Part shown: in pieces, positions 7,594 through 55,744 of the stretch | How positions within the stretch are numbered: position 1 is the first letter of the stretch | How the letters are laid out: each line of letters opens with the position of its first letter | From: a virus | DNA: 64,000 nucleotides | Virus record (IMG/VR): IMGVR_UViG_3300031541_000012 | Span: 25,494-89,493 of that record | Strand: one strand, 5' to 3' | Notes under the pieces: generated by a model | The model's input: only the letters and a program-made list of their open reading frames with translations | Told to the model about the DNA's origin: nothing | Databases searched by the model: none | Program-made: the position numbers and the translations under genes

Positions 7594-8094
7594 ATGAACC
7601 AACCAATAACTTACAAATACGTTAGCACAAAGGAATACCACGATGAGTTTCCATGTGCATACCGCCAGTGGCGAGCAGACTCGCACTGCAACTTAATCCA
7701 CGGCTATAGCTTCAGCATAAAGTTCTACTTTGGCACAAATGAATTAGATGTGCGCAATTGGGTAGCTGACTATGGTGGATTGAAAGAACTAAAAGGCTTC
7801 CTCAAGGACCAGTTTGATCACACTCTGCTTGTGGCAGAAGATGATCCTGAGTTTGAGATGTTCCAGCGGTTGCAAGAACGCAAGCTTGCAAAACTAACTG
7901 TCCTACCCAAGCTGGGCTGTGAAGGACTCGCTGATCAACTTTATAGGTATGTGAATGGAGTTTATATCCCGGATATGTGGGGTCCTACGGAAGCGAAAAG
8001 ACTTTGGTGTTTCAAAGTTGAAGTTCGCGAAACCCAGAGCAATATGGCTTACCGCGAAGGCCACAGAGAATGGAATGAGGACTTGTTCGCCTAG
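7594..8094 (+). CDS. queD: 6-carboxytetrahydropterin synthase
   Basis: SHCNLIHGY, DYGGLKELK, FDHTLLV, EVRETQSN. Confidence 0.9.
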   Translation: MNQPITYKYVSTKEYHDEFPCAYRQWRADSHCNLIHGYSFSIKFYFGTNELDVRNWVADYGGLKELKGFLKDQFDHTLLVAEDDPEFEMFQRLQERKLAKLTVLPKLGCEGLADQLYRYVNGVYIPDMWGPTEAKRLWCFKVEVRETQSNMAYREGHREWNEDLFA

Positions 8095-27642: not shown

Positions 27643-27709
27643 AGTTCAGTAGTGCCCGCAAGGGACTTATGGGGACCCACCCCGTAGCGGCTAGAACCTG
27701 CATTGGACT
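27643..27709 (+). ncRNA. candidate multi-stem leader RNA
   Basis: Closing stem plus three hairpins incl. GCAA tetraloop, between TAAATA and RBS. Confidence 0.45.
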
Positions 27710-27727
27710 TCTATTAAGGAGAAAACA

Positions 27728-31168: not shown

Positions 31169-31179
31169 TAAATACCAAT

Positions 31180-31665
31180 ATGAAAATCCAGGATATCATA
31201 ACAGAAACCTCAGCAGGAAGCATTGGCGCAGTTGCAGCACCACTTGGTAGTGGTGATCCTGCCGCAAGCATTTACGGCAAGAAGAAAAAGAAAAAGAAAA
31301 CCGAGATGATCAAACGTTCCGCTACCAATGAAGATGTATTTTTGCCATTTATAGGCGGATCGATTGTATTCTCTCTTATTCTACTATACATTGCTACCTC
31401 AGGGGCCTGGCAGTGGTATAAAAAGAACAAATACAAATCTGAAGTTAAAAGAACAATTAAAAGAGTCATCGAAGAAATTAAAACAGATCCTAAAAAGCGT
31501 GAAATACTCGATGATCTTCAACACAATTACATAAAAAACGGAAGATTCCGTCCTGGTATGAAAAATGCAGGACTCAAGAAAATTCACGACCTATTAGATG
31601 GGCAACCACAAGACATGATTCAGCAAATGGTGTCATCTATCAAAACAACAAGAACGGAGAAATGA
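31180..31665 (+). CDS. putative head protein with TM segment
   Basis: TAAATA upstream; MKIQDIITE leader. Confidence 0.6.
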   Translation: MKIQDIITETSAGSIGAVAAPLGSGDPAASIYGKKKKKKKTEMIKRSATNEDVFLPFIGGSIVFSLILLYIATSGAWQWYKKNKYKSEVKRTIKRVIEEIKTDPKKREILDDLQHNYIKNGRFRPGMKNAGLKKIHDLLDGQPQDMIQQMVSSIKTTRTEK

Positions 31666-32822
31666 CGATGGTCAGAGTAGTAACTAATCGTTATCAAAGA
31701 GTACATGGCAAAAAGCCACGCGGGACTGGACAGTGGATGTTCACATCCAACGAATATGGTGACATTGACTTTAACGATGACACGACATTCTTCCAGGCAC
31801 CGGTCAGCCTACCACTAGCAAAAGCAGCGGCTCACGCTAAGCGTTGGGGCAAAGAAAACGGACACACGGCTATTTACGTTGCTGAAGAAGGATTGAATGA
31901 AATCCACTACGGTACAGAAGATGAATGGAAAGCAAAAGTGAAAAAGACAGCAGACGCAGCACGCAAGGGCATGACTAAGAATCACGAAAAGCGTAAGGCG
32001 GCAATGGGAGAAGATAAGAAACCATTAGGCGGCAAGTTTAAAGTTGGACAGCGTGTTCTACCAAGCAAGAGCAGTCAAAAAGTAATGACTATCACAGGGT
32101 TTGACCGTGTTAAATATATGGGCAAGATGAAAACATTTGCTGATGGTAAGGACGATCAAGGTCGCAACATGCGTCGTCCACTAAGCACACTTGTCGCTAT
32201 TAACGAATCCAAGCAGCTAACAGAAGGCGTGCTAGACGAAATGGATGATGACGGCTTCATGGCAAAGCGTCAACTATACGATCTAGCAAAGTATTCAATC
32301 CAGCTACATAAGATGATTCAAGACTCAGACAACTTAGAACCTTGGGTGCAAGCAAAGATTACAAAAGCAGCAGACTATATTGACACAGTCAAGCACTACC
32401 TAGAATATCAGGATGTACGTAGCGATGAAGCACATGCGGATTTTGGCGACATAGATGACCTAGCGCCAGCAGTTGATGCTATGGCTCCAGACATGCCAGT
32501 TGAACAGGAAATGATGGAATTCCAAGATGAAGGATTTTCAGGCGATGACTTGTTACAACATGCAGTGTTGCGCGGCATTGTTGGTCCTGATGCTGTTCAT
32601 GATCCTGCAATGCAGGGCGTTGCAGATGACACAGCAGAGTGGTATTTTGCTGACGCTGAAGAAATTGGTAGCAGCGATATCTCAATTGCACTCAAGTCAT
32701 TTGCACGTGATTGTGTTGCACAGGGTTGCAATCTAAACGGCGCTAATGCAGAACGTTATGTGACAGAAGTAAAGGCTGCAAACATCTATAGCCAGATGAT
32801 GAAGCCATTGAAAGGCAAGTAA
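31662..32822 (+). CDS. modular putative internal head protein
   Basis: KOW-like FKVGQRV, LEPWVQAKITKAADY helix module, [LVI]xE junctions. Confidence 0.6.
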   Translation: MTMVRVVTNRYQRVHGKKPRGTGQWMFTSNEYGDIDFNDDTTFFQAPVSLPLAKAAAHAKRWGKENGHTAIYVAEEGLNEIHYGTEDEWKAKVKKTADAARKGMTKNHEKRKAAMGEDKKPLGGKFKVGQRVLPSKSSQKVMTITGFDRVKYMGKMKTFADGKDDQGRNMRRPLSTLVAINESKQLTEGVLDEMDDDGFMAKRQLYDLAKYSIQLHKMIQDSDNLEPWVQAKITKAADYIDTVKHYLEYQDVRSDEAHADFGDIDDLAPAVDAMAPDMPVEQEMMEFQDEGFSGDDLLQHAVLRGIVGPDAVHDPAMQGVADDTAEWYFADAEEIGSSDISIALKSFARDCVAQGCNLNGANAERYVTEVKAANIYSQMMKPLKGK

Positions 32823-32823
32823 T

Positions 32824-34953: not shown

Positions 34954-34956
34954 AGA

Positions 34957-35283
34957 ATGCAGTTAACTGAGATCAAGGAAAAGATCCGTAACACTCGTAT
35001 GCCACGCCGCATATATGATGAAGTTATGGCTCAAGAAGTTGACACAGTTGGAAAAGACAGTCAACAAGAAAAGCACCAGCTGGCAGATCAGATGCTACGT
35101 GGCCAGCCAAGCGGAGCCATTGTTAAGGTTCCGCTTACAAAGGAAGTACAGAGCTATTTGCTTTACAAATCACTTCCAAACATGATTGACATTGCTAAAG
35201 ACAATATGAATCGTCGACTAGTAAATAGTTTACAGAAGTTCCAGGCACGTTTACATGCCAAGTTGGTAGGAGTTGAAAAGTAA
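34957..35283 (+). CDS. hypothetical protein
   Basis: MQLTEIKE leader. Confidence 0.6.
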   Translation: MQLTEIKEKIRNTRMPRRIYDEVMAQEVDTVGKDSQQEKHQLADQMLRGQPSGAIVKVPLTKEVQSYLLYKSLPNMIDIAKDNMNRRLVNSLQKFQARLHAKLVGVEK

Positions 35284-40836: not shown

Positions 40837-41078
40837 CAGAAAACCTTGAAATCGTTAATGATAAAATCGGCCAAGAAATTCGTGTTGGCAGCATTGTTGC
40901 AATGCCCAACGCCAAAACAGAGCTCAAAATAGGGCGGGTGAAAAAGATTTCATCCAAGACAATTTTGTGTGAAGATGTTAACAGGACATCTTCACAATCA
41001 CGTAAGAGGCATACCGAAGTGATTTGTCTCGATGAGATGGAAGCGACTGTCATGTATCTTATGACTCGCAATCTTTAA
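40833..41078 (+). CDS. hypothetical SH3-like protein
   Basis: DKIGQEIRVGSIV. Confidence 0.55.
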   Translation: MTENLEIVNDKIGQEIRVGSIVAMPNAKTELKIGRVKKISSKTILCEDVNRTSSQSRKRHTEVICLDEMEATVMYLMTRNL

Positions 41079-41773
41079 TCCCATTTGACAACTATATTGA
41101 ATTTTTTTCTTATTTTATTCTCACGTAATAGAGTGTTTTGGTATAGTTTACCAAATGTCATATTTTTCATACTATTGATTTGATCAGGATCATATTTCTC
41201 AGGATTACCATGCCAAAACGAACCATAAAATTCATAAACGGTATTTGTTTTTGGATCAAAGCCATCAACAATAAAATATTCATTATCAATTTTAATGGTA
41301 TGTTGGCGTATTGGAATATTCAAATCATCAAGCCATTGTTTCTCTGATTTGCTAATATTTCCAGTTTTTAATCCGTTACGGCGAATGTTAGCAGCACATA
41401 CAGGACAACCACCATTGCGTTGGAAATGACCTTCTGCTTTATTGATTTTAAATTCACCATGGTCACGACAAGAAAGAATAACATTATGTTTCATTCCATT
41501 AAATTTAGAAACCAATGAATATTGATTTCCATATTTTTCCTGGCTTCTGCTAACAAACTCTTCAGTAGTTAATGGATAATTATGTGAACATTTTGGACAC
41601 CCTTGTTTTTCTCTTATATGTTCCTGTGCGCGTTTAATAAAAACACCATGTTCTTTACATATAATTTTTACTGGCTTTAACATCCCCAAATAGTCAGTTA
41701 AGTCATAACAAAATGTATTGCCATGAATTTTTTTAGCACGATTAATAAATTCTTCTGTTGTTAGCTTTTTCAT
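41075..41773 (-). mobile_element. free-standing homing endonuclease (Zn-finger repeats + Vsr/PD-(D/E)XK domain)
   Basis: Two TTEEFI..C..HG.F..GCPxC repeats; VDGFD..YEFYGSFWHG; AT-rich, antisense. Confidence 0.8.
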
Positions 41774-41819: not shown

Positions 41820-44483
41820 TTGTATGTTGATGCAATACATGATCGCGGCCGCGATACTATCTATGTAGTCGAACGTAACGAAGAAGGACAGCGTGTTCAT
41901 ACGCAGTATCCTGCTCGTTACGTTTTCTACTACCCTGACCCCAAAGGCAAGTTCACAAGCATTTTTGGTGAGCCTTTGGGGCGGTACAGCACCACAAGCA
42001 ACAAAGCATTCCAGAAAGAAAAGAAGTCGTTCTACGGCAAGCGTCTGTATGAGAGTGACTGCAATGTGGTGTTCCGTTGCATATCAGACTATTACTTGGA
42101 CGCCCCTGTTCCCAAGCTGAATATAGGGTTTTTCGATATTGAGGTTGACTTCAACAAGGACCTAGGCTTTGCTCCGCCTGAAGATCCGTTCAACGCCGTT
42201 ACTGCCGTGGGCGTCCATCTCAACTGGATTGACAAGACCATCTGTCTTGTTATCAAGCCCAAGGGCATGGAGCAAGCTGAAGCAGAGCGTATTGTTGGTG
42301 AGTTTGACGACGTCATACTCATGGACAGCGAAAAAGAACTGCTTGAAACATTCCTAGAGCTCATTGAAGATGCTGATATCCTAAGCGGCTGGAACAGTGA
42401 AGGCTTCGATATTCCCTACATGGTTAACCGTATTGCACGAGTGCTAGGCAAGGACTACACTCGCAAGTTCTGCCTGTGGGGGCAGTTTCCCAAGAAGCGC
42501 ACATACGAAGCTTACGGCAACCAGCAAGAGACGTTCGACCTCGTAGGGCGCGTACACCTGGACTACCTGCAACTATATCGCAAGTACACCTACCACGAAA
42601 TGCACAGCTATAGCTTGGACGCCATCGCAGAGCACGAGTTGGGTGAGAAGAAGGTTGACTACGAAGGCACATTGGATCAGCTCTACAATAACGACTTCAA
42701 GAAGTTTATCGAATACAACATACAAGACACGAACCTGCTACGCAAGCTAGACGACAAGCTTCAGTTTATTGACTTGAGTAACGTTCTCGCACACGCCAAC
42801 GGTGTTTTGCTACCCAACACAATGGGCGCGGTGGCGCAAACAGACCAAGCTATCGTTAACGAAGCACACAGCCGCGGGTTGATTGTGCCTGACAAAGTTC
42901 GCGGACAAGAGCACACACAAGCCGCTGGTGCCTATGTTGCTAACCCTGTCAAGGGTATGCACGACTGGATTGGCAGCATGGACTTGAACAGTCTGTATCC
43001 GTCCATCCTGCGCGCCTGCAACATGAGCCCTGAATGTATTATTGGACAGGTACGTCAGGACTTTACAAACGGCGATCTGGAAGACAGCCGCAAGCAATAC
43101 AAAGACAACCCAATTGCACGTTACTGGGAAGGCAAGTTCGCTTGCCGTGAGTACGAGCTTGTTATGGAGCGTAACCGTGATATTGGCCTTATATTGGACT
43201 TTGAAGACGGCAAAAGCTACAACGCAAGCGGCGCCGAGATCTACGATCTGATCTTCCACAACGGCAAGCCCTGGTGCATTACCAGCAACGGTACAATCTT
43301 TACGTTTGAGAAACAGGGTGTCGTTCCTGGATTGCTTGAGCGTTGGTATGCAGAGCGTAAGGAGATGCAGGCCAAGGCAAAGGACTACAAAGGATTCAAG
43401 GGCAAAGAAGAAGAGTTTGCCTTCTGGGACAAGCGTCAGCTGGTGAAGAAGATTAACCTTAACTCACTATACGGCGCGTTGCTTAACCCAGGCAGCCGCT
43501 TCTTTGACCAACGTCTAGGGCAGAGCACAACGCTAACAGGGCGTACAATCGCACGTCACATGGCTGCGCAAACCAATATGGAAATTGCTGGCGAGTACGA
43601 CCATACAGGCAAAAGCATTATCTACGGCGACACTGACTCCGTTTACTTCAGCGCGTTCCCAGTTTACGCAGAACAGATTGCTAGCGGAGAGTTTAAGTGG
43701 GACAAAGACACTATCGTTGAGCTCTACGATGCAGTGGGAGAGGCAGTCAACGACACGTTTCCTGACTACATGGCTCGTGCACACAACTGCCCGGACCGTT
43801 ACGGACGTATCATTGCCGCAGCACGTGAGACAGTGGGCGAGCGTGGTATCTTTATCAGCAAAAAGCGTTACGGCATCCTTGTGTATGACGATGAGGGCAC
43901 TCGCGTTGACACAGATGGCAAACGTGGTAAGCTAAAGGTTATGGGCTTAGAAATCAAGCGCAGCGACACGCCTGACTACATGCAAGAGTTCCTCAAAGAG
44001 ATCCTACAGGACACACTTGAGGGTGCAACTGAGGAACAGGTAATTGACCGTATCCGTGAGTTCCGCAAGGAATTCCGTGACATGAAGCCGTGGGAAAAGG
44101 GCACACCTAAACGTGTGAACAACCTTACCAAGTACACTGCGACATGGAAGAAAACAGGCAAGTGTAGAGTAGGACACGTCATGGCAGCGATTAACTACAA
44201 TCGCCTGCGCGACATGCACGAGGACGCCTACAGCCTAGAGATTGTTGACGGTATGAAAACTATCGTCTGCAAACTAAAACCCAATCCTCTCAACATGACG
44301 AGTATTGGTATCCCTACAGACGAAAAGCGCATACCGCAGTGGTATCAGGACTTGCCGTTTGACGAGGATGAGATGGAGGAAGCAATTGTCTCCAAGAAAA
44401 TAAGCAACTTGCTGGGCACCCTAGATTGGGATCTTAGCAGGGCGGAAAGCAAAACAACTTTCAATGACCTATTTGACTTTTAG
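41820..44483 (+). CDS. family B DNA polymerase (gp43-like), TTG start
   Basis: FDIE, GWNSEGFD, DLNSLYPS, KINLNSLYG, YGDTDS, KKRY; C-terminal FNDLFDF. Confidence 0.97.
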   Translation: MYVDAIHDRGRDTIYVVERNEEGQRVHTQYPARYVFYYPDPKGKFTSIFGEPLGRYSTTSNKAFQKEKKSFYGKRLYESDCNVVFRCISDYYLDAPVPKLNIGFFDIEVDFNKDLGFAPPEDPFNAVTAVGVHLNWIDKTICLVIKPKGMEQAEAERIVGEFDDVILMDSEKELLETFLELIEDADILSGWNSEGFDIPYMVNRIARVLGKDYTRKFCLWGQFPKKRTYEAYGNQQETFDLVGRVHLDYLQLYRKYTYHEMHSYSLDAIAEHELGEKKVDYEGTLDQLYNNDFKKFIEYNIQDTNLLRKLDDKLQFIDLSNVLAHANGVLLPNTMGAVAQTDQAIVNEAHSRGLIVPDKVRGQEHTQAAGAYVANPVKGMHDWIGSMDLNSLYPSILRACNMSPECIIGQVRQDFTNGDLEDSRKQYKDNPIARYWEGKFACREYELVMERNRDIGLILDFEDGKSYNASGAEIYDLIFHNGKPWCITSNGTIFTFEKQGVVPGLLERWYAERKEMQAKAKDYKGFKGKEEEFAFWDKRQLVKKINLNSLYGALLNPGSRFFDQRLGQSTTLTGRTIARHMAAQTNMEIAGEYDHTGKSIIYGDTDSVYFSAFPVYAEQIASGEFKWDKDTIVELYDAVGEAVNDTFPDYMARAHNCPDRYGRIIAAARETVGERGIFISKKRYGILVYDDEGTRVDTDGKRGKLKVMGLEIKRSDTPDYMQEFLKEILQDTLEGATEEQVIDRIREFRKEFRDMKPWEKGTPKRVNNLTKYTATWKKTGKCRVGHVMAAINYNRLRDMHEDAYSLEIVDGMKTIVCKLKPNPLNMTSIGIPTDEKRIPQWYQDLPFDEDEMEEAIVSKKISNLLGTLDWDLSRAESKTTFNDLFDF

Positions 44484-44532: not shown

Positions 44533-45282
44533 TTGATTATGGAAATCAAAGACGTATTGCTCGACATCATCAAGCACACAAACGGGCTTGGGATTATCGA
44601 GAACATCAAGGTTGATGGCGGTGACGGCAAAACAGCACTAGGCGCTATGGACCCTGATAAAACAGTTATCATGACAGCTGAACTTCATGATACAGTTCCT
44701 GAATTTGACGGTGAGTTTGGTATGGGCAGCCTGGGTCTACTCAGCAGCCTTATGCGTCTCAGCAACTATCAGGATCCAGGTGCATCTATCTCAATCAAGC
44801 GCGAAGAGCGTAACGGCGAAGAGATGCCAACCACACTTATTTTTGAAGACACTGAAGGCGGCAAAGACCAGTATCGCTTTATGAGCAAGCAGGTAGTTGA
44901 CGAGGCGATGAAAGTCGCTACGTTTAAGGGTGCAAACTGGGACGTTGTTATCCAGCCAGCAGCCAAGCGCGTTGCTCAACTAGGCGAAGTTGCTGGTATC
45001 TACAGCGGCGTTGACCCTGCGTTCAAAGTTACTACAAAAGACGGTCAGCTTGTGCTGGAAGTTGGTAGCACTGAAGGCGGTGTTGTTGGGCGTCGTGTTT
45101 TTGCTGAGAATGTGGAAGGCGATCTTAATGCTGGTTGGCAATTCCCGCTAGCACAGTTCCTTGCTATCCTCAAGCTAGGCGGTACACAAGTTGTCAGCTT
45201 CAGCGACCAAGGTGCAGCTAAGATTGATGTAGACAGTGGTATTGGCGTTTACAGCTATATCATGCCTGCAATGAGTGGCTAA
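44533..45282 (+). CDS. sliding clamp (gp45-like)
   Basis: About 245 aa right after the polymerase, beta-rich two-domain pattern, YSYIMPA end. Confidence 0.7.
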   Translation: MIMEIKDVLLDIIKHTNGLGIIENIKVDGGDGKTALGAMDPDKTVIMTAELHDTVPEFDGEFGMGSLGLLSSLMRLSNYQDPGASISIKREERNGEEMPTTLIFEDTEGGKDQYRFMSKQVVDEAMKVATFKGANWDVVIQPAAKRVAQLGEVAGIYSGVDPAFKVTTKDGQLVLEVGSTEGGVVGRRVFAENVEGDLNAGWQFPLAQFLAILKLGGTQVVSFSDQGAAKIDVDSGIGVYSYIMPAMSG

Positions 45283-45303: not shown

Positions 45304-45546
45304 ATGGTCAAAAAGATTAAAGCAATTGAGGATGACAATCCTAGCGATCTTGATCGTGATGAATACCAAGCCAAAATGCTAGAGTATCAGCAAGCTATCG
45401 ACTGGAAGCTTTGGGAGATGCTCAAGATTTTACAAGCTTGGGCAGAGCGTGAAGGCTTGAACAAGGAAGAAGCACCAGCACCAAAAGCAAATGATGCAAA
45501 GCGCAAATCCACAGTCAAGCCAGTCATTGTTGACGAGGATGAATAA
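45304..45546 (+). CDS. hypothetical protein
   Basis: AGGAG RBS; AIDWKLWE. Confidence 0.65.
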   Translation: MVKKIKAIEDDNPSDLDRDEYQAKMLEYQQAIDWKLWEMLKILQAWAEREGLNKEEAPAPKANDAKRKSTVKPVIVDEDE

Positions 45547-45977
45547 TGGCACATAAATTAGAACAAGTCCATACCAAGATTTGGGTTACGTTTCAGAAGG
45601 AAGGCATACATTTGTATCCTGCCGCTGCAACTGATCCCAACTTGGCAACTGGTGATGAATGGGACGTAAGCTTCCTTGGTGTTGCACACCGTCACATTTT
45701 TCACTTCCGTGTTGGTATTGAAGTGTTTCATGATGATCGTGACATTGAGTTTATCCAGTTCAAACGTTGGCTGGAAAAGCTTTATAACGACAAGACACTC
45801 GAGCTCAACCACAGAAGTTGTGAGATGATTGCACAAGAACTTGCAGAAGTCATCCACAACCAATATCCAGGCCGTGCTATGGAAATCACTGTCAGTGAAG
45901 ACAATGAAAACGGCGCAACCCTAAACTTTACATCAACCCCACTCGCAGACAATGGTTTGCGTGTAGTCAAAGGATAA
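45546..45977 (+). CDS. QueD-like T-fold protein (DpdL-like, proposed CDG decarboxylase)
   Basis: LGVAHRHIF (LxxxHRHxF), DIEFIQFK, SCEMIA, VSEDNENGA. Confidence 0.7.
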   Translation: MAHKLEQVHTKIWVTFQKEGIHLYPAAATDPNLATGDEWDVSFLGVAHRHIFHFRVGIEVFHDDRDIEFIQFKRWLEKLYNDKTLELNHRSCEMIAQELAEVIHNQYPGRAMEITVSEDNENGATLNFTSTPLADNGLRVVKG

Positions 45978-45983
45978 TAAAAG

Positions 45984-46271
45984 ATGGCTAATGCAATCAG
46001 CCTAAACGATATCAAATATGACCTACTCAAGATCATCGAGCCTTGGGACGGACGCCTAGAGTCAAACAATCCTCGCCCTGTGCGACATTTGTTTATCCAG
46101 TATTTAAATGATTTGCAAAAAGAGAAGATGATTTACGACTTCTCAATTGACACAACCAACCGTGAAAGCGCGTTTACGTTTGACGTAACAGTGCGCATGA
46201 GTCCAACACGGAGCCCGAAAAAACTCAAGATTCACGTCGGTATTTTCACAACTCCGTGGGTTGCGGCCTAA
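45984..46271 (+). CDS. hypothetical protein
   Basis: Packed ORF; weak tail-sheath C-domain-like pattern. Confidence 0.55.
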   Translation: MANAISLNDIKYDLLKIIEPWDGRLESNNPRPVRHLFIQYLNDLQKEKMIYDFSIDTTNRESAFTFDVTVRMSPTRSPKKLKIHVGIFTTPWVAA

Positions 46272-46278
46272 ATAGATG

Positions 46279-46319
46279 TAGCAGGTTACGGTTGACTCTA
46301 TACCGTAACCTGCTATAAT
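46279..46319 (+). promoter_or_regulatory. sigma70-type promoter inside 14-bp perfect inverted repeat
   Basis: TAGCAGGTTACGGT/ACCGTAACCTGCTA; TTGACT-16-TATAAT with TG extension. Confidence 0.65.
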
Positions 46320-46343
46320 CATTATATATTTCAAGGAACCTAC

Positions 46344-47885
46344 ATGACAATTGATCTCAACAAGGCGAACAGAGACTATGCAGTCTTCTTGCCGAGTATC
46401 AGCGGCTTCTACGTTGATACAATGGCAAACCCAGACACTCGTGTTCCGCCAGGCCTGGAAAAAGGCAAGGAAGGGTTGGACTTCCTAAAAGACGATGGCT
46501 ATTTCAGCTATCAGTGGGGGCTATACTCCGCAGGCCACGCGCAACTTGACGTGGCCAAAGCTAACATGGAAGAGGTCATGATCCAACAGCGTGACCGCAA
46601 GAATACGTTCATTCTAGGTGACTCAGGTGGTTTTCAAATCATCACTGGCGTCCTTAAAATGGACTGGACAAAGTTCTACACTGATGACACAGTGCGTCAG
46701 AAGATCCTAAACTATCTGGAAAACACAGCAGATTACAGCATGGTGTTGGATGTGCCAACACTAGCAGCTAGTGAGCCATTTAGCTCACGCAGCGGCATCA
46801 AGGACTTCCAGCAATGCTTGGACTACACTAAGTTCAACAACGACTGGTTTGTCAAGAACCGCAAGCACCAGACAAAACTGCTTAACAGTATGCAAGGCCG
46901 CACACTGGACGAAGCACGTTACTGGTTTGATGAGACCAAGCACTTCCCGTTTGAGGGTTGGGGCTTTGGTGGCTCAACCAGCAAGAACCTCGTTATCATT
47001 CTCAAGCAACTGATTTGGTTGCGTGACGAGGGCTACTTGGAGCAGGGCAAATACGATCATATGCACTACCTTGGTGTTAGCCGTAACGAGTTCTCAGTTT
47101 ACTACACTGCGATCAAGCGTATGCTCAACAAGTATGTCAACCCAGACATGGAAGTAACATACGATGCAGCCAGCGCATTCATCATGGCAACAAAAGGCCA
47201 GATGTATGGTGACGTGGTTGTGAACAACAAGAAAATGATCATGGGCGGCGTACCTGTTGTGGATAACAAGCTGCTACACGGTAGCGACTTGCCGCTACCA
47301 GCACAGAGCCCAATCTTTGAGCGCATGACAGCAGGCGACCTTTGCTATTACGATCACGGTGTGCCTAGTATGGAAGCTCTACAGGAAGCATGGCTGCGCA
47401 AGCAACGTGACGGTGACCATCACCTACTTGATGTTGAGCGTGACTTTGACATGACTGAGGCGCTCAAAGACAAAGAGTTGCTTAACGATGCTGCATTGTG
47501 GGAGAAACAAGGCAAGAAGAACAAGATCGATAAAGTAGGTAAGACCAGCTGGGATACTAGCAGTTACCTATACGTCATGGCACACAATGTCTTTGTCAAC
47601 ATCAAGACATTGCAGCTATGTAACCAGAACGTTGACTTGGGACTAGGACAAGCTGGTGACTTTGATCCACTTGAGTTTACTACAGTACAGGCACGTAAAG
47701 GAAAACTAGAGATCAGTCCTTGGGCGCCTACTGAAGTCTTGGTTACTACCAAAATCATTGAGGATGTTATGCAGAGCGAAACGCCAATGGACATTATTGA
47801 TGCTGCCGCTGGCTTCCTTGATAGCCGTAGCATTGTAAGCGGATACCAAGACAATAAGTCAACATTTGACAGTCTATTTGATTAA
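46344..47885 (+). CDS. TGT-fold guanine transglycosylase (DpdA-like)
   Basis: LGDSGGFQ, VLDVP, GWGFGG, HYLG, YDAAS; context of folE/queD/queE. Confidence 0.8.
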   Translation: MTIDLNKANRDYAVFLPSISGFYVDTMANPDTRVPPGLEKGKEGLDFLKDDGYFSYQWGLYSAGHAQLDVAKANMEEVMIQQRDRKNTFILGDSGGFQIITGVLKMDWTKFYTDDTVRQKILNYLENTADYSMVLDVPTLAASEPFSSRSGIKDFQQCLDYTKFNNDWFVKNRKHQTKLLNSMQGRTLDEARYWFDETKHFPFEGWGFGGSTSKNLVIILKQLIWLRDEGYLEQGKYDHMHYLGVSRNEFSVYYTAIKRMLNKYVNPDMEVTYDAASAFIMATKGQMYGDVVVNNKKMIMGGVPVVDNKLLHGSDLPLPAQSPIFERMTAGDLCYYDHGVPSMEALQEAWLRKQRDGDHHLLDVERDFDMTEALKDKELLNDAALWEKQGKKNKIDKVGKTSWDTSSYLYVMAHNVFVNIKTLQLCNQNVDLGLGQAGDFDPLEFTTVQARKGKLEISPWAPTEVLVTTKIIEDVMQSETPMDIIDAAAGFLDSRSIVSGYQDNKSTFDSLFD

Positions 47886-47893
47886 GGAACATC

Positions 47894-48952
47894 ATGAAGA
47901 AGGTAATTATTTTTCCATTAGAGCCACTGGACGCACGTTACACCAAACAGTGGTACACAGAAGTTCCCAATCAACTAGACACTTATATTGGGGCCACCCC
48001 TAGGGTGGCTCCACACGCTATGAGCATTGTTGGTGAACAAAAAGAGCAATCAACAACTGCGGGTGCGTTCCTTAACTTTGCTGATACAAACTACTGGAAA
48101 AGCACACAGCTAGCAAACTTTGTAGATAGCCTGCATATGGAATTGATCCCTGATGATGCGATCCTGTTCTTCACAGACTTCTGGAACCCAGCTATTATAC
48201 AGGTTGCGTATATGCGAGACCTGTTAGGCAAGCAATGGGAGATCCACAGCATTGCTCATGCGGGCGCGTACGACCCAAGCGATATCCTAGGATACAAAAT
48301 GGATCCAGACTGGGCTTATAACTTTGAGCGCAGCCTATATTATGCACATACAAAACTTTATTTTGCAACTCACTTCCACTGTGAAATGTTTTTGCGTAAC
48401 TTGGATATTGAAGATCAGGATCGCGCTGTTGTGGCAGGGCAGCCATACGAATACTTGCTAGACAAGATGGCTGAGTTTGACCAATCAGACAAGACCAACA
48501 CCGTGATGTGGCCACATCGTTACAACGACGATAAACAGCCAGAGATTGCTGAAGATCTTTCAAACAATTTTGATGTGTTTATTACACAAAAACATCAGTT
48601 GAGTAAAGATGAATATTATGCTAAACTAGCAAAGAGCAAGATAGTTTTCAGTTGCAGCCTGCATGAAAACTTGGGTATGAGCATGATTGAGGGCACACTT
48701 GTTGGCGCCTTGCCTATTGCTCCTGATCGCGCTGCTTATAGTGAGATTTACCTGCCTGAGTTCCTATACCCAAGCAAGTGGACTGAGAGCGTGGAAAACT
48801 ATCATCTCTATAAGGACGAGCTGGTAGCGTTTATCAACAGTCGTATTCAGCAGTACGACAAATATGCTGAGTTGCTGCCAGAACAGCGTCAAAGATTGCT
48901 GGATTATATTACACCACAACACATGTTCAAACACATGCTAGGAGAAAACTAA
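47894..48952 (+). CDS. GT-B glycosyltransferase (GT4-like)
   Basis: HRYNDDK, ENLGMSMIEG (Ex7E), PIAPDRAAYSEI. Confidence 0.8.
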   Translation: MKKVIIFPLEPLDARYTKQWYTEVPNQLDTYIGATPRVAPHAMSIVGEQKEQSTTAGAFLNFADTNYWKSTQLANFVDSLHMELIPDDAILFFTDFWNPAIIQVAYMRDLLGKQWEIHSIAHAGAYDPSDILGYKMDPDWAYNFERSLYYAHTKLYFATHFHCEMFLRNLDIEDQDRAVVAGQPYEYLLDKMAEFDQSDKTNTVMWPHRYNDDKQPEIAEDLSNNFDVFITQKHQLSKDEYYAKLAKSKIVFSCSLHENLGMSMIEGTLVGALPIAPDRAAYSEIYLPEFLYPSKWTESVENYHLYKDELVAFINSRIQQYDKYAELLPEQRQRLLDYITPQHMFKHMLGEN

Positions 48953-49524
48953 TGGATTATGCTGACGTTATCAAAAGCTATATTCGCAAGACACAACAAA
49001 CAATCGGCTTCCTAAATGGTGAAGGTGAGACAATCGAAGAGATTAGCGATATCTGCTACTCATCCCTTGCCAATGGAAACAAGCTTATCTTTTGCGGTAA
49101 TGGCGGCAGTGCAGCAGACAGCCAGCACCTTGCAGCAGAGTTTATGGGCCGGTTCCTAATGGACCGTGACCCAGTACCTGCTCTAGCACTCACAACTGAC
49201 ACCAGCGCACTCACTGCAATTGGCAATGACTATGGTTATGATCAAGTATTTGCCCGCCAGCTACGCGGCATTGGCAGCAAGGGCGATGTATTGGTAGGTA
49301 TCAGCACCAGTGGCAATAGCGGAAACGTAGTGAACGCAATTCATGCAGCGAAAGCTATGGGTATCACAACTGTTGGCTTTACCGGCTCTAGCGGTGGCGC
49401 AATGGGATCGCTTTGCAACGTTACTCTACGCGTACCAAGTGACGAGACAAATCATATTCAAGAATGTCACATCACAACAGGACACCTAATCTGTAAAATC
49501 GTTGAAGAGAGAATGTTTGGATGA
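48952..49524 (+). CDS. gmhA: sedoheptulose-7-phosphate isomerase
   Basis: CGNGGSAADSQH, IGNDYGY, GISTSGNS, IQECH. Confidence 0.96.
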   Translation: MDYADVIKSYIRKTQQTIGFLNGEGETIEEISDICYSSLANGNKLIFCGNGGSAADSQHLAAEFMGRFLMDRDPVPALALTTDTSALTAIGNDYGYDQVFARQLRGIGSKGDVLVGISTSGNSGNVVNAIHAAKAMGITTVGFTGSSGGAMGSLCNVTLRVPSDETNHIQECHITTGHLICKIVEERMFG

Positions 49525-50687
49525 TTAAACAAGCCGTAATACTTTGCGGGGGCAAAGGTACACGACTGGGAGACCTCACTGAATATGTACCCAAGCCAAT
49601 GTTGAATGTTGGTGACTGTCCGTTCTTTGAGCATCTCATGCAAGAAGTATCACGTTACGGCTTTGAAGAGATTGTCCTGCTCACTGGACATCTAGGCGAA
49701 GCATTTCGTCCTTGGCATGGCGGCACATTCAACAATGTGCGTCTAAAGGTTGTTCAAGAGCCTGAGCCACTTGGAACCTGGGGTGGTGTTGCACATGCAC
49801 AAGAACATCTAGACGACTACTTTGTTCTAACGAACGGAGACAGTTGGCTAGATATTCCCATGACTCACCTGCGCAAACTCAAGCCCAAAGGCATACACAT
49901 GGTCGGACGTTATGTTAAAGACGCTGATCGCTACGAAACACTTAACATCAACAAAACACATGTCAAGCAGATTTGGCCACGCGGCACACAGGAATCTGGA
50001 TTTATCAACAGTGGCATCTATGTTGTTAACAAGGACATTATCCAAACGTTTGGGCAGGGCAACATTAGCATGGAAGAAATGGTGCTGCCTACACTTGCTG
50101 ACACCAGTTCCCTTACTGTTGAGACCGTACAAAGCAACACCTTCTTTATTGACATTGGTGTGCCAGAAGACTATGAACGCGCACAGACAGAGCTCATTGA
50201 GCAGCGCACACGCCCCGCACTATTTGTCGACAGGGACAACTGCTTGACATATGACCGTGAAGGATACACACATCATCCAGACGACATGGAATTCAAGCCT
50301 GGCGCTATTGATCTCATACGCAAAGCAAACCGCCTTGGTTGGTATGTCTTTGTAGTAACAAACCAGGGTGGTGTAACAAAAGGCAAGTATGAAGAGCACT
50401 ATATACTTGAATTTCATAGGAAAATGCAGTATACTTTAGCTGAGACTGACAACCATCTTGATGCTCTTGACTACGAGATCGAGTTGGACAGTTTCCGTCG
50501 CAAGCCTAATCCTGGTATGTTGCTTGAGCTGATGTCTGACTGGCCAGTTAATCGTGAAATGAGCTTTATGATTGGCGACAAGGAAAACGACAAACTGGCA
50601 GGAATAGCAGCAGGTATCGCGGGCTATCGTATCGACGATCAGGGCGACCTATTTGAGCAATTTGGAGAATACATTGTTTGTGAGTAA
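49521..50687 (+). CDS. fusion: heptose-1-P guanylyltransferase (HddC-like) + heptose-1,7-bisphosphate phosphatase (GmhB)
   Basis: GGKGTRL..PKPM..FIDIGVPEDY; FVDRD, VVTNQ, RKPNPGML, MIGDK..D. Confidence 0.9.
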   Translation: MIKQAVILCGGKGTRLGDLTEYVPKPMLNVGDCPFFEHLMQEVSRYGFEEIVLLTGHLGEAFRPWHGGTFNNVRLKVVQEPEPLGTWGGVAHAQEHLDDYFVLTNGDSWLDIPMTHLRKLKPKGIHMVGRYVKDADRYETLNINKTHVKQIWPRGTQESGFINSGIYVVNKDIIQTFGQGNISMEEMVLPTLADTSSLTVETVQSNTFFIDIGVPEDYERAQTELIEQRTRPALFVDRDNCLTYDREGYTHHPDDMEFKPGAIDLIRKANRLGWYVFVVTNQGGVTKGKYEEHYILEFHRKMQYTLAETDNHLDALDYEIELDSFRRKPNPGMLLELMSDWPVNREMSFMIGDKENDKLAGIAAGIAGYRIDDQGDLFEQFGEYIVCE

Positions 50688-51681
50688 GACACCGTTGCGT
50701 GTTAGCTTCTTTGGAGGCGGTACTGATTACCCAGAGTATTTTGCTGATAATCCCAGTGCAGTTATGGGCGGCACAATCAACAAATATATCTATACAACAG
50801 GACTTCCGCTTGCACCCTTTGCAGAGCAGAAGTTTCGCATCAGCTACAAGGTAGTTGAAGACTGCAACACAGTGGATGATATCAGTCATCCAGTTATACG
50901 TGAAGTTCTCCGTGAAATGGATTACGACACACCAACAGGCCTTTACACAGTAAGTGACATTCCTGGAAGCACTGGGCTAGGCAGCTCTAGTGCATTTACT
51001 GTTGGCTTCTACAATCTAGTAAATGCAATGCAGGGGAACCCCAACATTGGTGATGTAGAACTGGCCAATCGTGCTATACACTTGGAACGTGAAATACTAG
51101 GTGAAAACGTTGGCGTGCAAGACCAAGTTCATGCAGCCGTTGGCGGACTTGCACATTATGAATTTGGTGTGACAGAGTGGGGCTATAAAATTGACCGCAC
51201 TCCAATTTGGATGTCACCAGACCGTTGGCGTCACCTAAACCAAAGCATGGTTTTGGTATATACTAAGATTCAACGTCACGCAAGCAAGATAGTTTCTGCT
51301 CAAATCAAGCAAACTGTCAAAGGTGACAATGGTGTTTATCTAAATACAATGTATGAGATGGCAACTGAGGGCAAGGATATCCTAGAGGACAGCGGCGATC
51401 ACACTCGTGCTTTCCGTGCACTAGGTGACTTGCTTAACCAAGGTTGGTTACTCAAACAAAAACTTGGCAAAGGCGTAACGAACGCTGATGTCAATGATAT
51501 ATACAATACAGGTATTGACATGGGCGCCTGGGGTGGCAAACTCCTTGGTGCTGGGGGCGGTGGCTTCGTCATGTTTCTTCTCGACCCTGAGTTAATCCCT
51601 GCGTTCCAGAAAGAATTCGGAACGAATAATGTCATCCCCGTCAGTTTTGTTGAGTCACGCTCAACAACGAGAGCGGTATAA
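50653..51681 (+). CDS. hddA: D-glycero-D-manno-heptose-7-phosphate kinase (GHMP family)
   Basis: TPLRVSFFGGGTD, GLGSSS, GVQDQ, GKLLGAGGGG. Confidence 0.9.
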   Translation: MSNLENTLFVSKTPLRVSFFGGGTDYPEYFADNPSAVMGGTINKYIYTTGLPLAPFAEQKFRISYKVVEDCNTVDDISHPVIREVLREMDYDTPTGLYTVSDIPGSTGLGSSSAFTVGFYNLVNAMQGNPNIGDVELANRAIHLEREILGENVGVQDQVHAAVGGLAHYEFGVTEWGYKIDRTPIWMSPDRWRHLNQSMVLVYTKIQRHASKIVSAQIKQTVKGDNGVYLNTMYEMATEGKDILEDSGDHTRAFRALGDLLNQGWLLKQKLGKGVTNADVNDIYNTGIDMGAWGGKLLGAGGGGFVMFLLDPELIPAFQKEFGTNNVIPVSFVESRSTTRAV

Positions 51682-51695
51682 GGTAAAGGACTAAC

Positions 51696-52382
51696 ATGAG
51701 TAAATCACAAGAAATTCGACAGCGTCTAGAAGATGCTGGACTACGTTACTGGGCTGGTGATAACATCAGTGAAGTAATGCGCGATGGCGACAAAGAGGCG
51801 CTAATTGATGAAGCAACACTTGCCTTTGAGAAAGTTTTGGATACCCTGTTGATTGACAGATTCAATGATCCAAACAGCATGGGCACACCACGCCGCCTCG
51901 CTAAAATGTACTACAACGAAATCATGAGCGGGCGCTACGATGCAGGGCCAGAGCCAACAGCATTTCCAAATGACGGCGAAGACGCCTACACTGGTATGCT
52001 AGTGGTACGCAGCGAACTCAAGAGCATGTGCTCACACCATCACCAGCCAGTTAGCGGCATTGCATATATTGGCGTCATCCCTAACGGCAAAGTAATTGGC
52101 TTGAGCAAGTATACACGCATCGCGCAATGGTGTGCACGTCGCGGCACACTACAGGAAGAGCTTGCAAACGACATTGCACGTGAGATTGCCAAAGCAACAA
52201 ATGCTAAACACCTGGGCGTATATATCCAGGCTACACACGGCTGTTGCGAGAACCGTGGCATCATGGCACACTCCAGTCTTACACAGACCACAGTGCTACG
52301 CGGACAGTTTGACACTGACCCAGGCACAAAGAAGGAGTTCTTCGACAACATCAAACTACAACAAGAGTTTGCACCAAGGTAA
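51696..52382 (+). CDS. folE: GTP cyclohydrolase I
   Basis: TPRRLAKM, SMCSHH, IGLSK, LQE, HGCCENRG. Confidence 0.96.
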   Translation: MSKSQEIRQRLEDAGLRYWAGDNISEVMRDGDKEALIDEATLAFEKVLDTLLIDRFNDPNSMGTPRRLAKMYYNEIMSGRYDAGPEPTAFPNDGEDAYTGMLVVRSELKSMCSHHHQPVSGIAYIGVIPNGKVIGLSKYTRIAQWCARRGTLQEELANDIAREIAKATNAKHLGVYIQATHGCCENRGIMAHSSLTQTTVLRGQFDTDPGTKKEFFDNIKLQQEFAPR

Positions 52383-52384
52383 AA

Positions 52385-52810
52385 ATGAAAGAGTCAGACA
52401 CAGATTACATCGTGTTTCATGACGTCGGAAGCGCCGCGACCATGAGTGGTGGTTCTTCTTTTACATTGCCACCAAGCAATAATAGTATATCAATCAACAT
52501 TCCCGATCCACAGATGGCCCGGGGTGATGTTCAGATCCAAGCAAATGATATGTTCATCAATCGCAGCGAGGGAGTAGACGCTCGTCTCAACCGTATTGAA
52601 GCTGTCTTGGGTATCACACAACGTAACCCAAATCTTGAAGACAAATATCCTGATCTGCGCGAAGCAGGCGAGGAAATGGATCAAGCCATTTCAGAAATTC
52701 AAGCAACTTTAGCTAAAACGATAAGTAGTATTAGTGAAGCCTACAATGATTTTGCAGGCGAATGTGAAGTTATGGAAAAGCTCAAGTCTAAATATGGCGA
52801 AACTGACTGA
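52385..52810 (+). CDS. hypothetical protein
   Basis: Packed ORF. Confidence 0.6.
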   Translation: MKESDTDYIVFHDVGSAATMSGGSSFTLPPSNNSISINIPDPQMARGDVQIQANDMFINRSEGVDARLNRIEAVLGITQRNPNLEDKYPDLREAGEEMDQAISEIQATLAKTISSISEAYNDFAGECEVMEKLKSKYGETD

Positions 52811-53000
52811 AGAAGAAGTTTACAACAAGATCCAAGAACTCAATGAACAAATGGACCATTTAGCCCACATACTCAGTATGATGGTAGACAAGATGGACCG
52901 CATTGAGGAAGCCACAGTCCGTATGAAAGATGAAATCGAACAAGACTTGGATGATATAATGGACGAATTAGACATTGACCACGAAAACAGGAAATCTTAA
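52794..53000 (+). CDS. hypothetical coiled-coil protein
   Basis: Packed ORF. Confidence 0.55.
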   Translation: MAKLTEEEVYNKIQELNEQMDHLAHILSMMVDKMDRIEEATVRMKDEIEQDLDDIMDELDIDHENRKS

Positions 53001-53535
53001 AACCATAGCAGGCCCAATGTATGCGGGCAAAACATCAGCAATACTTCAAGAAATACTTTGGATCAACCACTGCAACAATAAAGTACTGGTGCTCAAACCA
53101 AACATCGACAATCGCTATAGCGATGACCATATTTCAACACATGACCAACTGAAATTCCCGTGCTTCTCCATGCGCGACTGGGATCATGTTCTTGACAATT
53201 ACAACCTCATGCCATATAATTTCCATACAGTGTTCCTGGACGAAGTGCAGTTCATGGAGACTGAAAGGACACTGGAACAAGTTAACACCATGATTAACAA
53301 TGGTGTCAATGTTATAGCGGCAGGCCTCAACCAAGATAGTCGTGGTATGCCGTTCGAGACCACTGCGATGCTTCTTGCTATCAGCGATGAAGTCAAATTG
53401 ATACAGGCTATATGCACAGTATGTGGTAAGCCTGCGACAAAGACACAACGTCTAGAAGCTAGCGGTGATAGAGTAAATGTAGGCAGCACTGGCGTTTATG
53501 AGCCGCGCTGTCTGGAACACTGGACCGCGCAGTAA
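52975..53535 (+). CDS. tdk: thymidine kinase
   Basis: GPMYAGKT, LDEVQF, CTVCG, YEPRC. Confidence 0.94.
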   Translation: MTTKTGNLKTIAGPMYAGKTSAILQEILWINHCNNKVLVLKPNIDNRYSDDHISTHDQLKFPCFSMRDWDHVLDNYNLMPYNFHTVFLDEVQFMETERTLEQVNTMINNGVNVIAAGLNQDSRGMPFETTAMLLAISDEVKLIQAICTVCGKPATKTQRLEASGDRVNVGSTGVYEPRCLEHWTAQ

Positions 53536-53654
53536 TGCAAGTCATGCTACCAGGTGGTCCCGATAGGAACAGCCTGGCTGACCCAATGGCAAAACGACCA
53601 GCACCAATTGTCGGCATTTCAAGTCGTGCCAAAGCAAAAACGAGGAATCTCCAT

Positions 53655-54008
53655 ATGGAAGAACAAAACGAACCATTCTTTAACCGTCAATTTTGGCGTA
53701 TGACACTGATTGCTGCATTTAGTCAGATCATTGTGCTCTGAATCGCACTCATGGCAAGCGCAGTGATTGGCAGCAAAATTGATAGTCTCACAAACCTATT
53801 TGCAACAATGAACGGCACACTCGAGCGTCTCGAGTCAACCATTAACACAGTTGCAGGTCTTGACACGGCAGAGTTAGCAGAACAAGCCGCAGGCGTTGCT
53901 GAAAGTGCAAACATTGTTGGCGAAGGCGATGGCGGCGCTGAAGATGTTAACCGTGTAGGCGAGGCATTTAATAACTGGCGGGAAGGGCGCGAGACAGGAA
54001 ATGAATAA
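53655..54008 (+). pseudogene. membrane-anchored coiled-coil protein interrupted by in-frame TGA
   Basis: ..FSQIIVL*IALMASAVIG.. same frame, stop at 53739 within a TM helix. Confidence 0.45.
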
Positions 54009-54558
54009 TAACACAGAAGATCAAAATGACATGAGTGCCTTCCAGCTCATTTACTATCCTCACGAAGCGTTGGATACTCAGGTAGCCGCGTTTCCTGATG
54101 GTGATCCAGAGTATCGAAGGGCTGTTAGTCAACATATGCGTGACCTCTGTGAACAGCATAAAGGGCTTGGGTTAGCTGCTAATCAGATCAACCTCAACGC
54201 CGCTGCATTTGTTACACACGTTCAAAGTGAAATGGTCACTTGTTTCAATCCACAAATTCACGAAGTCAGCGATGACAAAGTGCTGATGAGTGAAGGCTGT
54301 TTGAGTGAGCCAGGCTTGTATCTTAAAGTTAAACGCCCTGACATGATCCGCGCAAGCTGGGAAGATGAAAGCGGTGATCGTCAGCAGGCAACACTGTTCG
54401 GCATGGACTGTCGTGTATTCTTGCATGAGTTTGATCACCTCCAGGGTGTTATGTTCATGGACAGGGTCGGCAAAACAAAATTGAACATGGCCCGCAAGAA
54501 GCAAAAGGATTATATGGAACGCGCAATGCAGCGTATCATGACTCACATGGAAGGTTGA
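54001..54558 (+). CDS. def: peptide deformylase
   Basis: GLGLAANQ, EGCLS, HEFDHLQG. Confidence 0.95.
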   Translation: MNNNTEDQNDMSAFQLIYYPHEALDTQVAAFPDGDPEYRRAVSQHMRDLCEQHKGLGLAANQINLNAAAFVTHVQSEMVTCFNPQIHEVSDDKVLMSEGCLSEPGLYLKVKRPDMIRASWEDESGDRQQATLFGMDCRVFLHEFDHLQGVMFMDRVGKTKLNMARKKQKDYMERAMQRIMTHMEG

Positions 54559-54581
54559 AAGACCAATAAGGATATGCTATA

Positions 54582-54860
54582 ATGTCAGATGCTTACGAAG
54601 CAACAGCCATTGTCTACCGGTCCAAACAGCCCAACACAATCATAGTTGCGCCTGAGGACCTAGAAGAGGCACTAGCACATGATGCTGATTATGGTGAGGT
54701 TCACGAGGCAACGTGTCGATACCTTGTAGACAAGTTGGGGTTCAGTTTGGATAGTATGGAGGTTACTGCCAACAAGGAACAAAGAACTGTTCTACAAACC
54801 CAAGTTGAATTTATCGACGACGGGATCGTCATGGCAAAGTTACAAGGATTAATTGATTAA
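54582..54860 (+). CDS. small protein, KL-motif family
   Basis: Ends EFIDDGIVMAKLQGLID. Confidence 0.55.
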   Translation: MSDAYEATAIVYRSKQPNTIIVAPEDLEEALAHDADYGEVHEATCRYLVDKLGFSLDSMEVTANKEQRTVLQTQVEFIDDGIVMAKLQGLID

Positions 54861-55744
54861 TGGTTAACGAAATCCGTTACACAGAGATATTTTACTCACT
54901 ACAAGGTGAGGGTAAGTTTGTAGGTGTACCAAGCATCTTCTTCCGCACCTTTGGGTGTAATTTCCGTTGCAAGAAGTTTGGACTGCCACGTGATGCAGAG
55001 GTTGGACGTTATAATCCAGAAGTGGAAAAGCTTATCGAAGCTGGTGTACATCAAACTACTAAAAACTTTGAAGACCTGCCCTTGGTGCACACTGGTTGCG
55101 ACACATATGCAAGTATCTATCCAGAGTTTAAGCATCTAAATGCCACTACGCCTATCGACGATCTACCTGAAAAGCTGTTGGAGGAAGTGCCAAATGGTAC
55201 ATGGACACAGCCAAACGGACAAGATGTACATCTAATCTTTACAGGCGGTGAGCCACTACTAGCTTGGCAGACACTATATCCTGAGTTACTTGAGCAGCCA
55301 CGTATGCGTGGACTGCAAAACATCACGTTTGAGACCAATACGACACAGATGCTCAAGGATCCACTTTACAACTATTTCTGGTCATCCAAAGGTGCCAAGC
55401 CACATGTTACATTTAGCTGCTCACCCAAACTAAGCGTTAGCGGCGAGACCTGGGAGAACGCAATCAAGCCTGACGTTGCGCGTCAATATCTGAGCATACC
55501 AAACTCAAACTTGTATCTCAAGTTTGTAGTTGCTGACAGACAGGATGTTGAAGAAGTGCAGCAAGCGGTTGCAGAATATCGCGCTGCTGATGTGCATTGC
55601 CCTGTCTATTTGATGCCACTGGGCGGGCGCAGTGAAGAATACAAGCTTAGTGTGCAAGACGTCGCTAATCTAGCAATGGAACAGGGGTGGCGCTTTACTC
55701 CACGACTACATATCGATCTATTTGGAAATGCCTGGGGAACGTAA
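54860..55744 (+). CDS. queE: 7-carboxy-7-deazaguanine synthase (radical SAM)
   Basis: EIFYSLQGEG, RTFGCNFRC..(insert)..CDT, TGGEP, ETN, SPKL, RLH. Confidence 0.93.
   Translation: MVNEIRYTEIFYSLQGEGKFVGVPSIFFRTFGCNFRCKKFGLPRDAEVGRYNPEVEKLIEAGVHQTTKNFEDLPLVHTGCDTYASIYPEFKHLNATTPIDDLPEKLLEEVPNGTWTQPNGQDVHLIFTGGEPLLAWQTLYPELLEQPRMRGLQNITFETNTTQMLKDPLYNYFWSSKGAKPHVTFSCSPKLSVSGETWENAIKPDVARQYLSIPNSNLYLKFVVADRQDVEEVQQAVAEYRAADVHCPVYLMPLGGRSEEYKLSVQDVANLAMEQGWRFTPRLHIDLFGNAWGT

Follow-up and report, generated by a model that had tools for sequence, protein, structure and literature searches.

Co-occurrence of a putative glycosyltransferase and exchangeable sugar cassettes with the 7-deazaguanine DNA modification genes of jumbo phages

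We analyzed a 64,000-nucleotide stretch of viral DNA (hereafter the window; positions 25,494 to 89,493 of IMG/VR record IMGVR_UViG_3300031541_000012), part of a 159-kb virus contig that is 44% complete. Next to a predicted 7-deazaguanine pathway and a DpdA-family DNA transglycosylase, the window encodes a GT-B glycosyltransferase (GT) and a full set of heptose enzymes. Comparison with related loci supports the assignment of this GT to the deazaguanine module and indicates that the subtype of the GT goes with an exchangeable sugar cassette; the GT module is far more widespread than its heptose version, which is rare. We propose, with a probability of roughly 55%, that a deazaguanine inserted by DpdA receives heptose from GDP-heptose through the GT, so that the DNA would carry heptosyl-deazaguanine. 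For the general case the odds seem about even: a phage family of wide distribution, with hundreds to thousands of loci that include those of the cultured phages PA5oct, Paride, Phosso and ACP17, may glycosylate a purine analogue in its DNA, possibly as a major-groove C-glycoside.

A preliminary description of the window, made from its letters alone, had suggested that heptose is transferred onto the deazaguanine base and that the co-occurrence of dpdA, GT and sugar genes be examined across related phages. This was carried out with loci anchored on DpdA, on the GT or on DpdL, a T-fold protein with the motif LxxxHRHxF in place of the CxxxHGH of QueD; the samples were ranked by similarity and are skewed to one large clade. 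With DpdA as anchor, 80 loci were fetched, 61 were bounded by the clamp gene and folE, and 48 were distinct: DpdL and the GT occur together in 45/48, neither occurs in 3/48, and only one of the two in 0/48. The GT anchor gave 160 loci, 55 of which were distinct and had flanks of 7 kb (upstream) and 3 kb (downstream); all 55 encode DpdL and 54 a jumbo-type DpdA, the 55th having DpdA2 instead. Among the DpdL-anchored loci (80, of which 76 distinct), the GT is present in 69/76 and in 39/41 with 5 kb on both sides, the two long-flank loci without it being L262, which has a short phiST-type DpdA3, and L285. Since the unrelated phages ACP17, Xanthomonas X1 and BCSR5 carry the GT and DpdL beside DpdA2, the tie between the two is confined to neither one phage lineage nor one DpdA subfamily. 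The phages phiST, RHph_I1_18, Bakedbeans and Ahp1 have DpdL but lack the GT; the positive control for the absence from phiST scored 5/5.

The link between GT subtype and sugar genes was counted in 102 distinct loci flanked by 3 kb on either side. Both gmhA and hddA are present in 6/6 loci with a GT of the GQPY/LGMSMIEG type, the window included, compared to 0/96 of the other loci, and in all six the heptose genes lie directly 3′ of the GT gene and overlap it. Loci of the GQPH type have no heptose genes (0/62); they contain instead a fusion of a HIGH nucleotidyltransferase (NTase) with a cupin (33 loci), a phosphomannomutase (PMM, 12) or an aldolase (8), a cassette that suggests a mannose route. 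GalE is encoded in 17/20 loci with the long type of GT and sugar dehydrogenases in 7–8/13 with the GWPM type, while 20/97 GT loci are devoid of any sugar genes. At the level of whole records, HddA is absent from 9/9 whose GT has no adjoining heptose genes (three being complete) and encoded in the sole GQPY record. As a separate observation, a 170-aa family without Pfam match (L045:9473-9994 and homologues) lies beside DpdL and the GT in 18/20 long-type and 10/13 GWPM-type loci. It also occurs in ACP17 and Phosso, is fused to DpdL in L110 (L110:8564-9544), and is absent from the window contig.

Phylogenetic trees of the GT, DpdA and the clamp were compared for 16 loci selected by hand (12 close, 4 as outgroup). 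On the GT tree the six heptose loci are monophyletic (support 99/99, or 99/98 with a mixture model); they are not on the DpdA tree (approximately unbiased test, p 7e-83, a value possibly inflated by the constrained search) or on the clamp tree (p 0.0003). Mapping the cassette labels of 97 loci requires 12 changes on the GT tree versus 16 on the DpdA tree, and DpdA identity between phages with and without the heptose genes is 75%. Within the GT, positions 262, 265 and 285 beside the E-x7-E motif differ between the heptose type (6/6) and the others (103/103); position 185 also separates the heptose type, but the comparison set was selected by this position. Co-occurrence and trees thus support both gene links implied in the preliminary description, GT with deazaguanine genes and GT with heptose genes, whereas placing the sugar on a DNA base is our inference.

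The base itself is predicted from the deazaguanine genes. Profile searches against NCBIfam, PHROG and Pfam show that FolE, QueD and QueE are all encoded. Because the T-fold protein is DpdL (56% identical to that of ACP17, 59% to that of PA5oct and 33% to that of phiST), the base is likely decarboxylated 7-deazaguanine and not 7-carboxy-7-deazaguanine (CDG). The preliminary description had correctly noticed the T-fold protein and the 7-deazaguanine pathway; it missed that the former is DpdL and hence that the product of FolE, QueD and QueE is likely decarboxylated. No PF06508 match for QueC was found in the 44%-complete contig (control 13/14).

The DpdA ORF (open reading frame) has no sequence match in Pfam, PHROG, NCBIfam or the PDB. 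In its AlphaFold model (predicted local distance difference test, pLDDT, 92.5), all 50 Foldseek matches listed are tRNA-guanine transglycosylases (TGT). An alignment of 104 homologues, from 120 listed, shows no variation at D93-SGGFQ, D136, Q184-G185, H241-x-L-G244 and D274, and we take D93, D136 and D274 to be the equivalents of TGT D102, D156 and D280. DpdA is 33% identical over its full length to PA5oct QCG76197.1, and the PA5oct gene between QCG76197.1 and QCG76199.1 is the GT orthologue. Supplementary Data S1 of Cui 2023 (PMC10516641) assigns QCG76197.1 as DpdA3 and QCG76199.1 as DpdL, predicts 2′-deoxy-7-deazaguanine (dDG) for this phage, and in the part covered does not list QueC. Compared to the 259-aa DpdA3 of phiST, a phage in which all G is replaced by dDG according to the same source, the window DpdA profile is related remotely at most (hhalign probability 4%, E 0.01). 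G-containing palindromes remain strongly avoided over the whole contig (ACGCGT 0.05, GCATGC 0.15 and CTGCAG 0.22 of expected), an indirect hint that the exchange by DpdA affects a subset of G and stops short of full replacement.

Two further observations concern these subjects. In the whole contig CCGA/TCGG (0.5), GGCC, CCGG and GTAC are also strongly avoided, and GAGCTC is 2.1-fold enriched. In Vibrio phage 2.275.O (L003:11911-18937), a DpdA of the same family is found with an amidoligase-like gene, QueF, YhhQ, QueC and a glutamine amidotransferase and no GT, a combination that likely has a different end product.

The structure model of the GT (pLDDT 93.6) is a GT4-type GT-B fold with BshA, MshA and glycogen synthase as its nearest matches (E 3e-10 to 8e-9), and it superimposes on that of the ACP17 GT with a template-modeling (TM) score of 0.87. 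H122, R209, K214 and E258-x7-E266 are invariant, giving a GT-B enzyme with a conserved His and an E-x7-E motif, which is presumably donor-binding. The heptose set GmhA, HddA, GmhB and HddC is complete with intact frames. These four and FolE are the best NCBIfam matches of their ORFs (E 1e-28 to 1e-61) yet fall below the equivalog cut-offs: HddC reaches 130 bits against a cut-off of 300 (108 for the next family) and HddA 120 against 600, so that the donor is assigned by inference. GmhA, HddA, GmhB and HddC would together lead to GDP-D,D-heptose (pathway in PMC10680097).

Taken together, these assignments suggest the following route. FolE, QueD and QueE, identified by homology and with an established chemistry, would make CDG from GTP. 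DpdL would strip the carboxyl group to leave 7-deazaguanine, a decarboxylation that was proposed and not demonstrated in Cui 2023 (PMC10516641), where expressing dpdL with dpdA yielded no dDG. DpdA would then swap 7-deazaguanine into the DNA at some of the G positions, its DNA substrate being predicted from the PA5oct orthologue. GmhA, HddA, GmhB and HddC would supply GDP-D,D-heptose, and on the strength of co-occurrence and trees the GT would move the sugar, D-glycero-D-manno-heptose, to the inserted base. Transfer after insertion is favored because DpdA does not track the sugar and the GT pairs with either DpdA2 or the long DpdA. As the GT nearly always accompanies DpdL, the pyrrole carbon freed by decarboxylation would be the preferred attachment atom; N2 is the alternative, with precedents in huimycin and dapiramicin. 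The product would likely serve as a bulkier shield against nucleases, and exchange of the GT together with its cassette would change the sugar. An acceptor of the T4 type, 5-hydroxymethylcytosine (hmC), is not indicated, since four complete GT-bearing genomes lack a second thymidylate-synthase paralogue; the window contig and three complete genomes each have one thymidylate synthase without paralogue, and ACP17 has none. A Tet_JBP search, run without positive control, was empty.

Several observations weigh against a heptosylated base. The three DpdA-anchored loci lacking DpdL and GT are close kin on contigs 5–16% complete and probably reflect one event; L285 combines DpdL with a jumbo-type DpdA while the GT is missing within 8 kb, and 5/22 phage records with a weak GT match have no DpdL match. 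The heptose link is confined to one clade and hence to one origin, and because the genes are adjacent, linkage alone could carry the GT and heptose genes together. Within the six loci, the heptose-gene and GT trees conflict (L004+L172 versus L006+L172, both starred), and GQPY occurs without LGMSMIEG in 12/120 GT homologues, so GQPY is not fully diagnostic. The GT is acidic (isoelectric point, pI, 4.99), but DpdA is equally so (5.13), and despite this pI the GT has the invariant basic residues R15, K69, K238 and R279. T4 DNA glucosyltransferases are absent among the fold matches listed for the GT model. The weakest point is the acceptor atom: 7-deazaguanine has no hydroxyl group, which retaining GT4 enzymes usually use as acceptor.

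In the main alternative, the DNA would contain plain 7-deazaguanine, as in phiST, with the GT and heptose decorating virion proteins or the host surface and the locus being a hotspot for metabolic genes. The slot indeed gathers unrelated genes as well (thymidine kinase, deformylase, MetK, PEPCK, Vut_1), and the nearest solved folds of the GT act on small molecules and wall polymers. In the covered part of Iyer 2021 (PMC7824862), which notes the deazaguanine system of PA5oct, sugar clusters of jumbo phages are read as surface modification. Another point in disfavor of a heptosylated base is that a GT7-like enzyme and a radical-SAM/carbamoyltransferase cluster near virion genes could consume the heptose; however, G008, which has four copies of one virion-region ORF, has no HddA. 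Virion or surface decoration leaves unexplained why the GT stands beside DpdL and DpdA in 54–55/55 loci, is lost jointly with DpdL and recurs with DpdA2, and we regard it as unlikely.

The order of insertion and transfer bears on another possibility, that the GT acts on a free base or nucleotide and yields a huimycin-like glycoside, a stored precursor or a pre-glycosylated base inserted by DpdA, with a tRNA target as a sub-case. HuiG acts at N2 of a 7-deazaguanine derivative in free form, the GT has a low pI and is BshA/MshA-like, and in Phosso (L002, L085) DpdL, GT, FolE and QueE are kept together in a block with the clamp while DpdA lies ~170 kb away, at 323 kb beside a primase and a helicase. 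If DpdA bound the glycoside, its sequence would be expected to track the sugar type, which it does not, and DpdA is present at nearly all GT loci; this possibility appears less probable still than virion decoration.

Finally, the GT might modify deazaguanine in DNA with another sugar, such as one from a host NDP-hexose, while the heptose genes serve something else. This would accommodate the low HddC and HddA scores, the GT loci without sugar genes, and the L172 heptose locus, which also retains the NTase-cupin gene and so has two candidate donor routes, a further point against the proposed heptosyl-deazaguanine. It is difficult to reconcile with heptose genes adjoining or overlapping the GT throughout one clade and in none of the other loci counted, and with the altered residues by the donor-binding motif, and we consider it very unlikely.

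The genes of the window locus are compiled in Table 1.

Table 1. Predicted genes of the modification module and its borders in the window.
Feature	Position	Strand	Basis
QueD (CPH4 synthase), remote from cluster	7594..8094	+	Pfam PTPS 3e-15, phrog_2389 4e-36, TIGR03367 1e-8; CxxxHG motif
Family B DNA polymerase (context)	41820..44483	+	Pfam/PHROG matches
Probable sliding clamp (context; left border of module)	44533..45282	+	phrog_12062 (unknown function); Phosso orthologue (36%) annotated sliding clamp
DpdL, T-fold QueD paralogue, proposed CDG decarboxylase	45546..45977	+	LGVAHRHIF fits LxxxHRHxF
Conserved 95-aa ORF, function unknown	45984..46271	+	Weak Phage_sheath_1C match below cut-off
DpdA-family DNA transglycosylase, long jumbo-phage type, 513 aa	46344..47885	+	TGT fold; invariant residues; PA5oct orthologue
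GT-B glycosyltransferase (GT), GT4-like, heptose-linked subtype GQPY/LGMSMIEG, 352 aa	47894..48952	+	Structure model
GmhA, sedoheptulose-7-phosphate isomerase	48952..49524	+	NF010546 6e-61, TIGR00441 2e-58
HddC-like nucleotidyltransferase fused to GmhB phosphatase	49521..50687	+	NF049965 1e-37 (residues 3-220); NF006506/TIGR00213 1e-28 (residues 231-369)
HddA, heptose-7-phosphate kinase (GHMP)	50653..51681	+	NF049969 2e-34; GHMP N and C domains
FolE, GTP cyclohydrolase I	51696..52382	+	Pfam 5e-40
QueE, CDG synthase	54860..55744	+	phrog_2076 1e-50; QueE TIGR models 4e-13 to 2e-8, below cut-off

An ORF check agreed with the preliminary description in the position and common orientation of the named ORFs and in the overlaps from the GT gene through hddA, and its identities for DpdA, the GT, GmhA, HddC-GmhB, HddA, FolE, QueE and QueD were borne out by the matches given above and in Table 1. 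The order after polymerase and clamp is likewise as described; the run is not uninterrupted, as an 80-aa ORF separates the clamp gene from the T-fold gene, the 95-aa ORF separates the latter from dpdA, and folE is followed by five ORFs, among them the genes for thymidine kinase and peptide deformylase, before queE. The clamp label itself derives from the annotation of the Phosso orthologue. The 95-aa ORF probably has no part in the sugar step because it is retained in loci without DpdL and GT. Spacing is tight: 8 nt between dpdA and the GT gene, −1 for GT/gmhA, −4 for gmhA/hddC and 14 nt from hddA to folE. The hddC/hddA overlap amounts to 35 nt from the longest TTG start or 8 nt from a GTG at 50680. 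Since five other distinct contigs repeat this arrangement gene by gene, it is not due to chance. Judged by gene order and homologues, this uncultured phage is close to PA5oct, Paride and MIJ3, jumbo phages that share the order polB, clamp, TGT-like gene, GT, T-fold gene, queE, RNase H and ATPase.

Some features of the contig and its relatives stand apart from the module's proposed function. The FolE of relatives at the position of window 51696-52382 is either ~75–84% or 32–44% identical, so two FolE types seem to be exchanged among close relatives. Free-standing ORFs resembling homing endonucleases are located just upstream of polB (41075-41773, − strand) and of queD (6960-7514, + strand). Long ORFs with an A-rich skew and no family match (530, 386 and 709 aa) occupy 28393-35283, followed by a cytidylyltransferase-like ORF at 35283, and an Rfam freshwater-2 RNA motif (27651-27730, +; 59.5 bits, gathering 49.9) is found upstream of the ORF at 27728. 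Elsewhere, on the − strand of G000:C1 at ~99000-133300 (L335-L337), at least 13 radical-SAM/SPASM genes occur with two Asp/Arg-hydroxylase-like genes, a carbamoyltransferase and several unassigned ORFs of 230–330 aa. This run directly adjoins baseplate and tail genes, has similar genes upstream of polB in L027, and is a candidate virion-modification cluster. A fatty-acid desaturase-like gene, an O-methyltransferase and a GT7-like galactosyltransferase follow thymidylate synthase at L335:5825-8083 (G000:C1 95318-97579).

In the literature searched, the sugar modifications of DNA concern pyrimidines, and the substituents of 7-deazaguanine variants are small. If our proposal is correct, DNA would have its first example of a glycosylated purine, a purine counterpart of glucosyl-hmC in T4. 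Such a deazapurine would extend the classes of hypermodified bases by one, and its enzyme, acting on 7-deaza-dG in DNA, could be useful for labeling. It would also provide a concrete candidate structure for the modified G in PA5oct, which is of interest for therapy. Within the family, the window locus is the one that names a donor, its four enzymes predicting an adduct of +192 Da.

The dDG system of phiST (Cui 2023, PMC10516641), as described in the part covered, shares FolE, QueD, QueE, DpdL with LxxxHRHxF and a DpdA; QueC was likewise not found, in the case of the window within a contig that is 44% complete. It differs by the lack of such a GT, by a DpdA of 259 aa compared to 513 aa here, and by full replacement of G, for which partial replacement seems likelier here; the term “glycosyltransferase” has 0 matches in the supplement. 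PA5oct and Paride (Wroclawvirus) share polB-clamp-DpdA-GT-DpdL...QueE with a GT that is 38% identical, but have another GT subtype and no HddA genome-wide. PA5oct DNA resists five G-site enzymes, from which a modified G was inferred (PMC12191111). A heptosylated DNA base as such has a precedent, contrary to the preliminary description, which knew of none: in the covered text of Pyle 2023 (bioRxiv 10.1101/2023.12.21.572611), an MT/TET-associated phage cluster made mono- and di-heptosyl-5hmC in E. coli. These systems likewise combine BshA/MshA-like GT-B enzymes and sugar-activating genes to put heptose on a DNA base after replication. Their acceptor is the 5hmC hydroxyl formed by MT and TET, and they use a HAD/APH enzyme and a cytidylyltransferase, whereas the partners in the window locus are deazaguanine genes and the GmhA/HddA/GmhB/HddC route; “deazaguanine” has 0 matches in that text.

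The same four enzymes constitute the GDP-D,D-heptose pathway described in the covered part of PMC10680097. The window cassette differs in being phage-borne, in its HddC-GmhB fusion, and in having neither a downstream epimerase/reductase nor capsule/S-layer genes. A chemical parallel is the N2 sugar on 7-deazaguanine of huimycin and dapiramicin (PMC7439116; bioRxiv 10.64898/2026.04.15.718813, both covered in part). As in the window, a GT of GT4 type adding a sugar to 7-deazaguanine is encoded beside folE/queD/queE-type genes in huimycin biosynthesis, but the product is a free, preQ0-based antibiotic with GlcNAc on N2, made without DpdA/DpdL. The covered parts of PMC13326640, PMC13282480 and PMC10761892 contain nothing on a glycosylated deazaguanine base, and none in DNA was found in the literature searched, with subscription journals outside the coverage. 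The deazaguanine core without a GT is known, and what is not described in the literature searched is its combination with a GT and a swappable sugar cassette.

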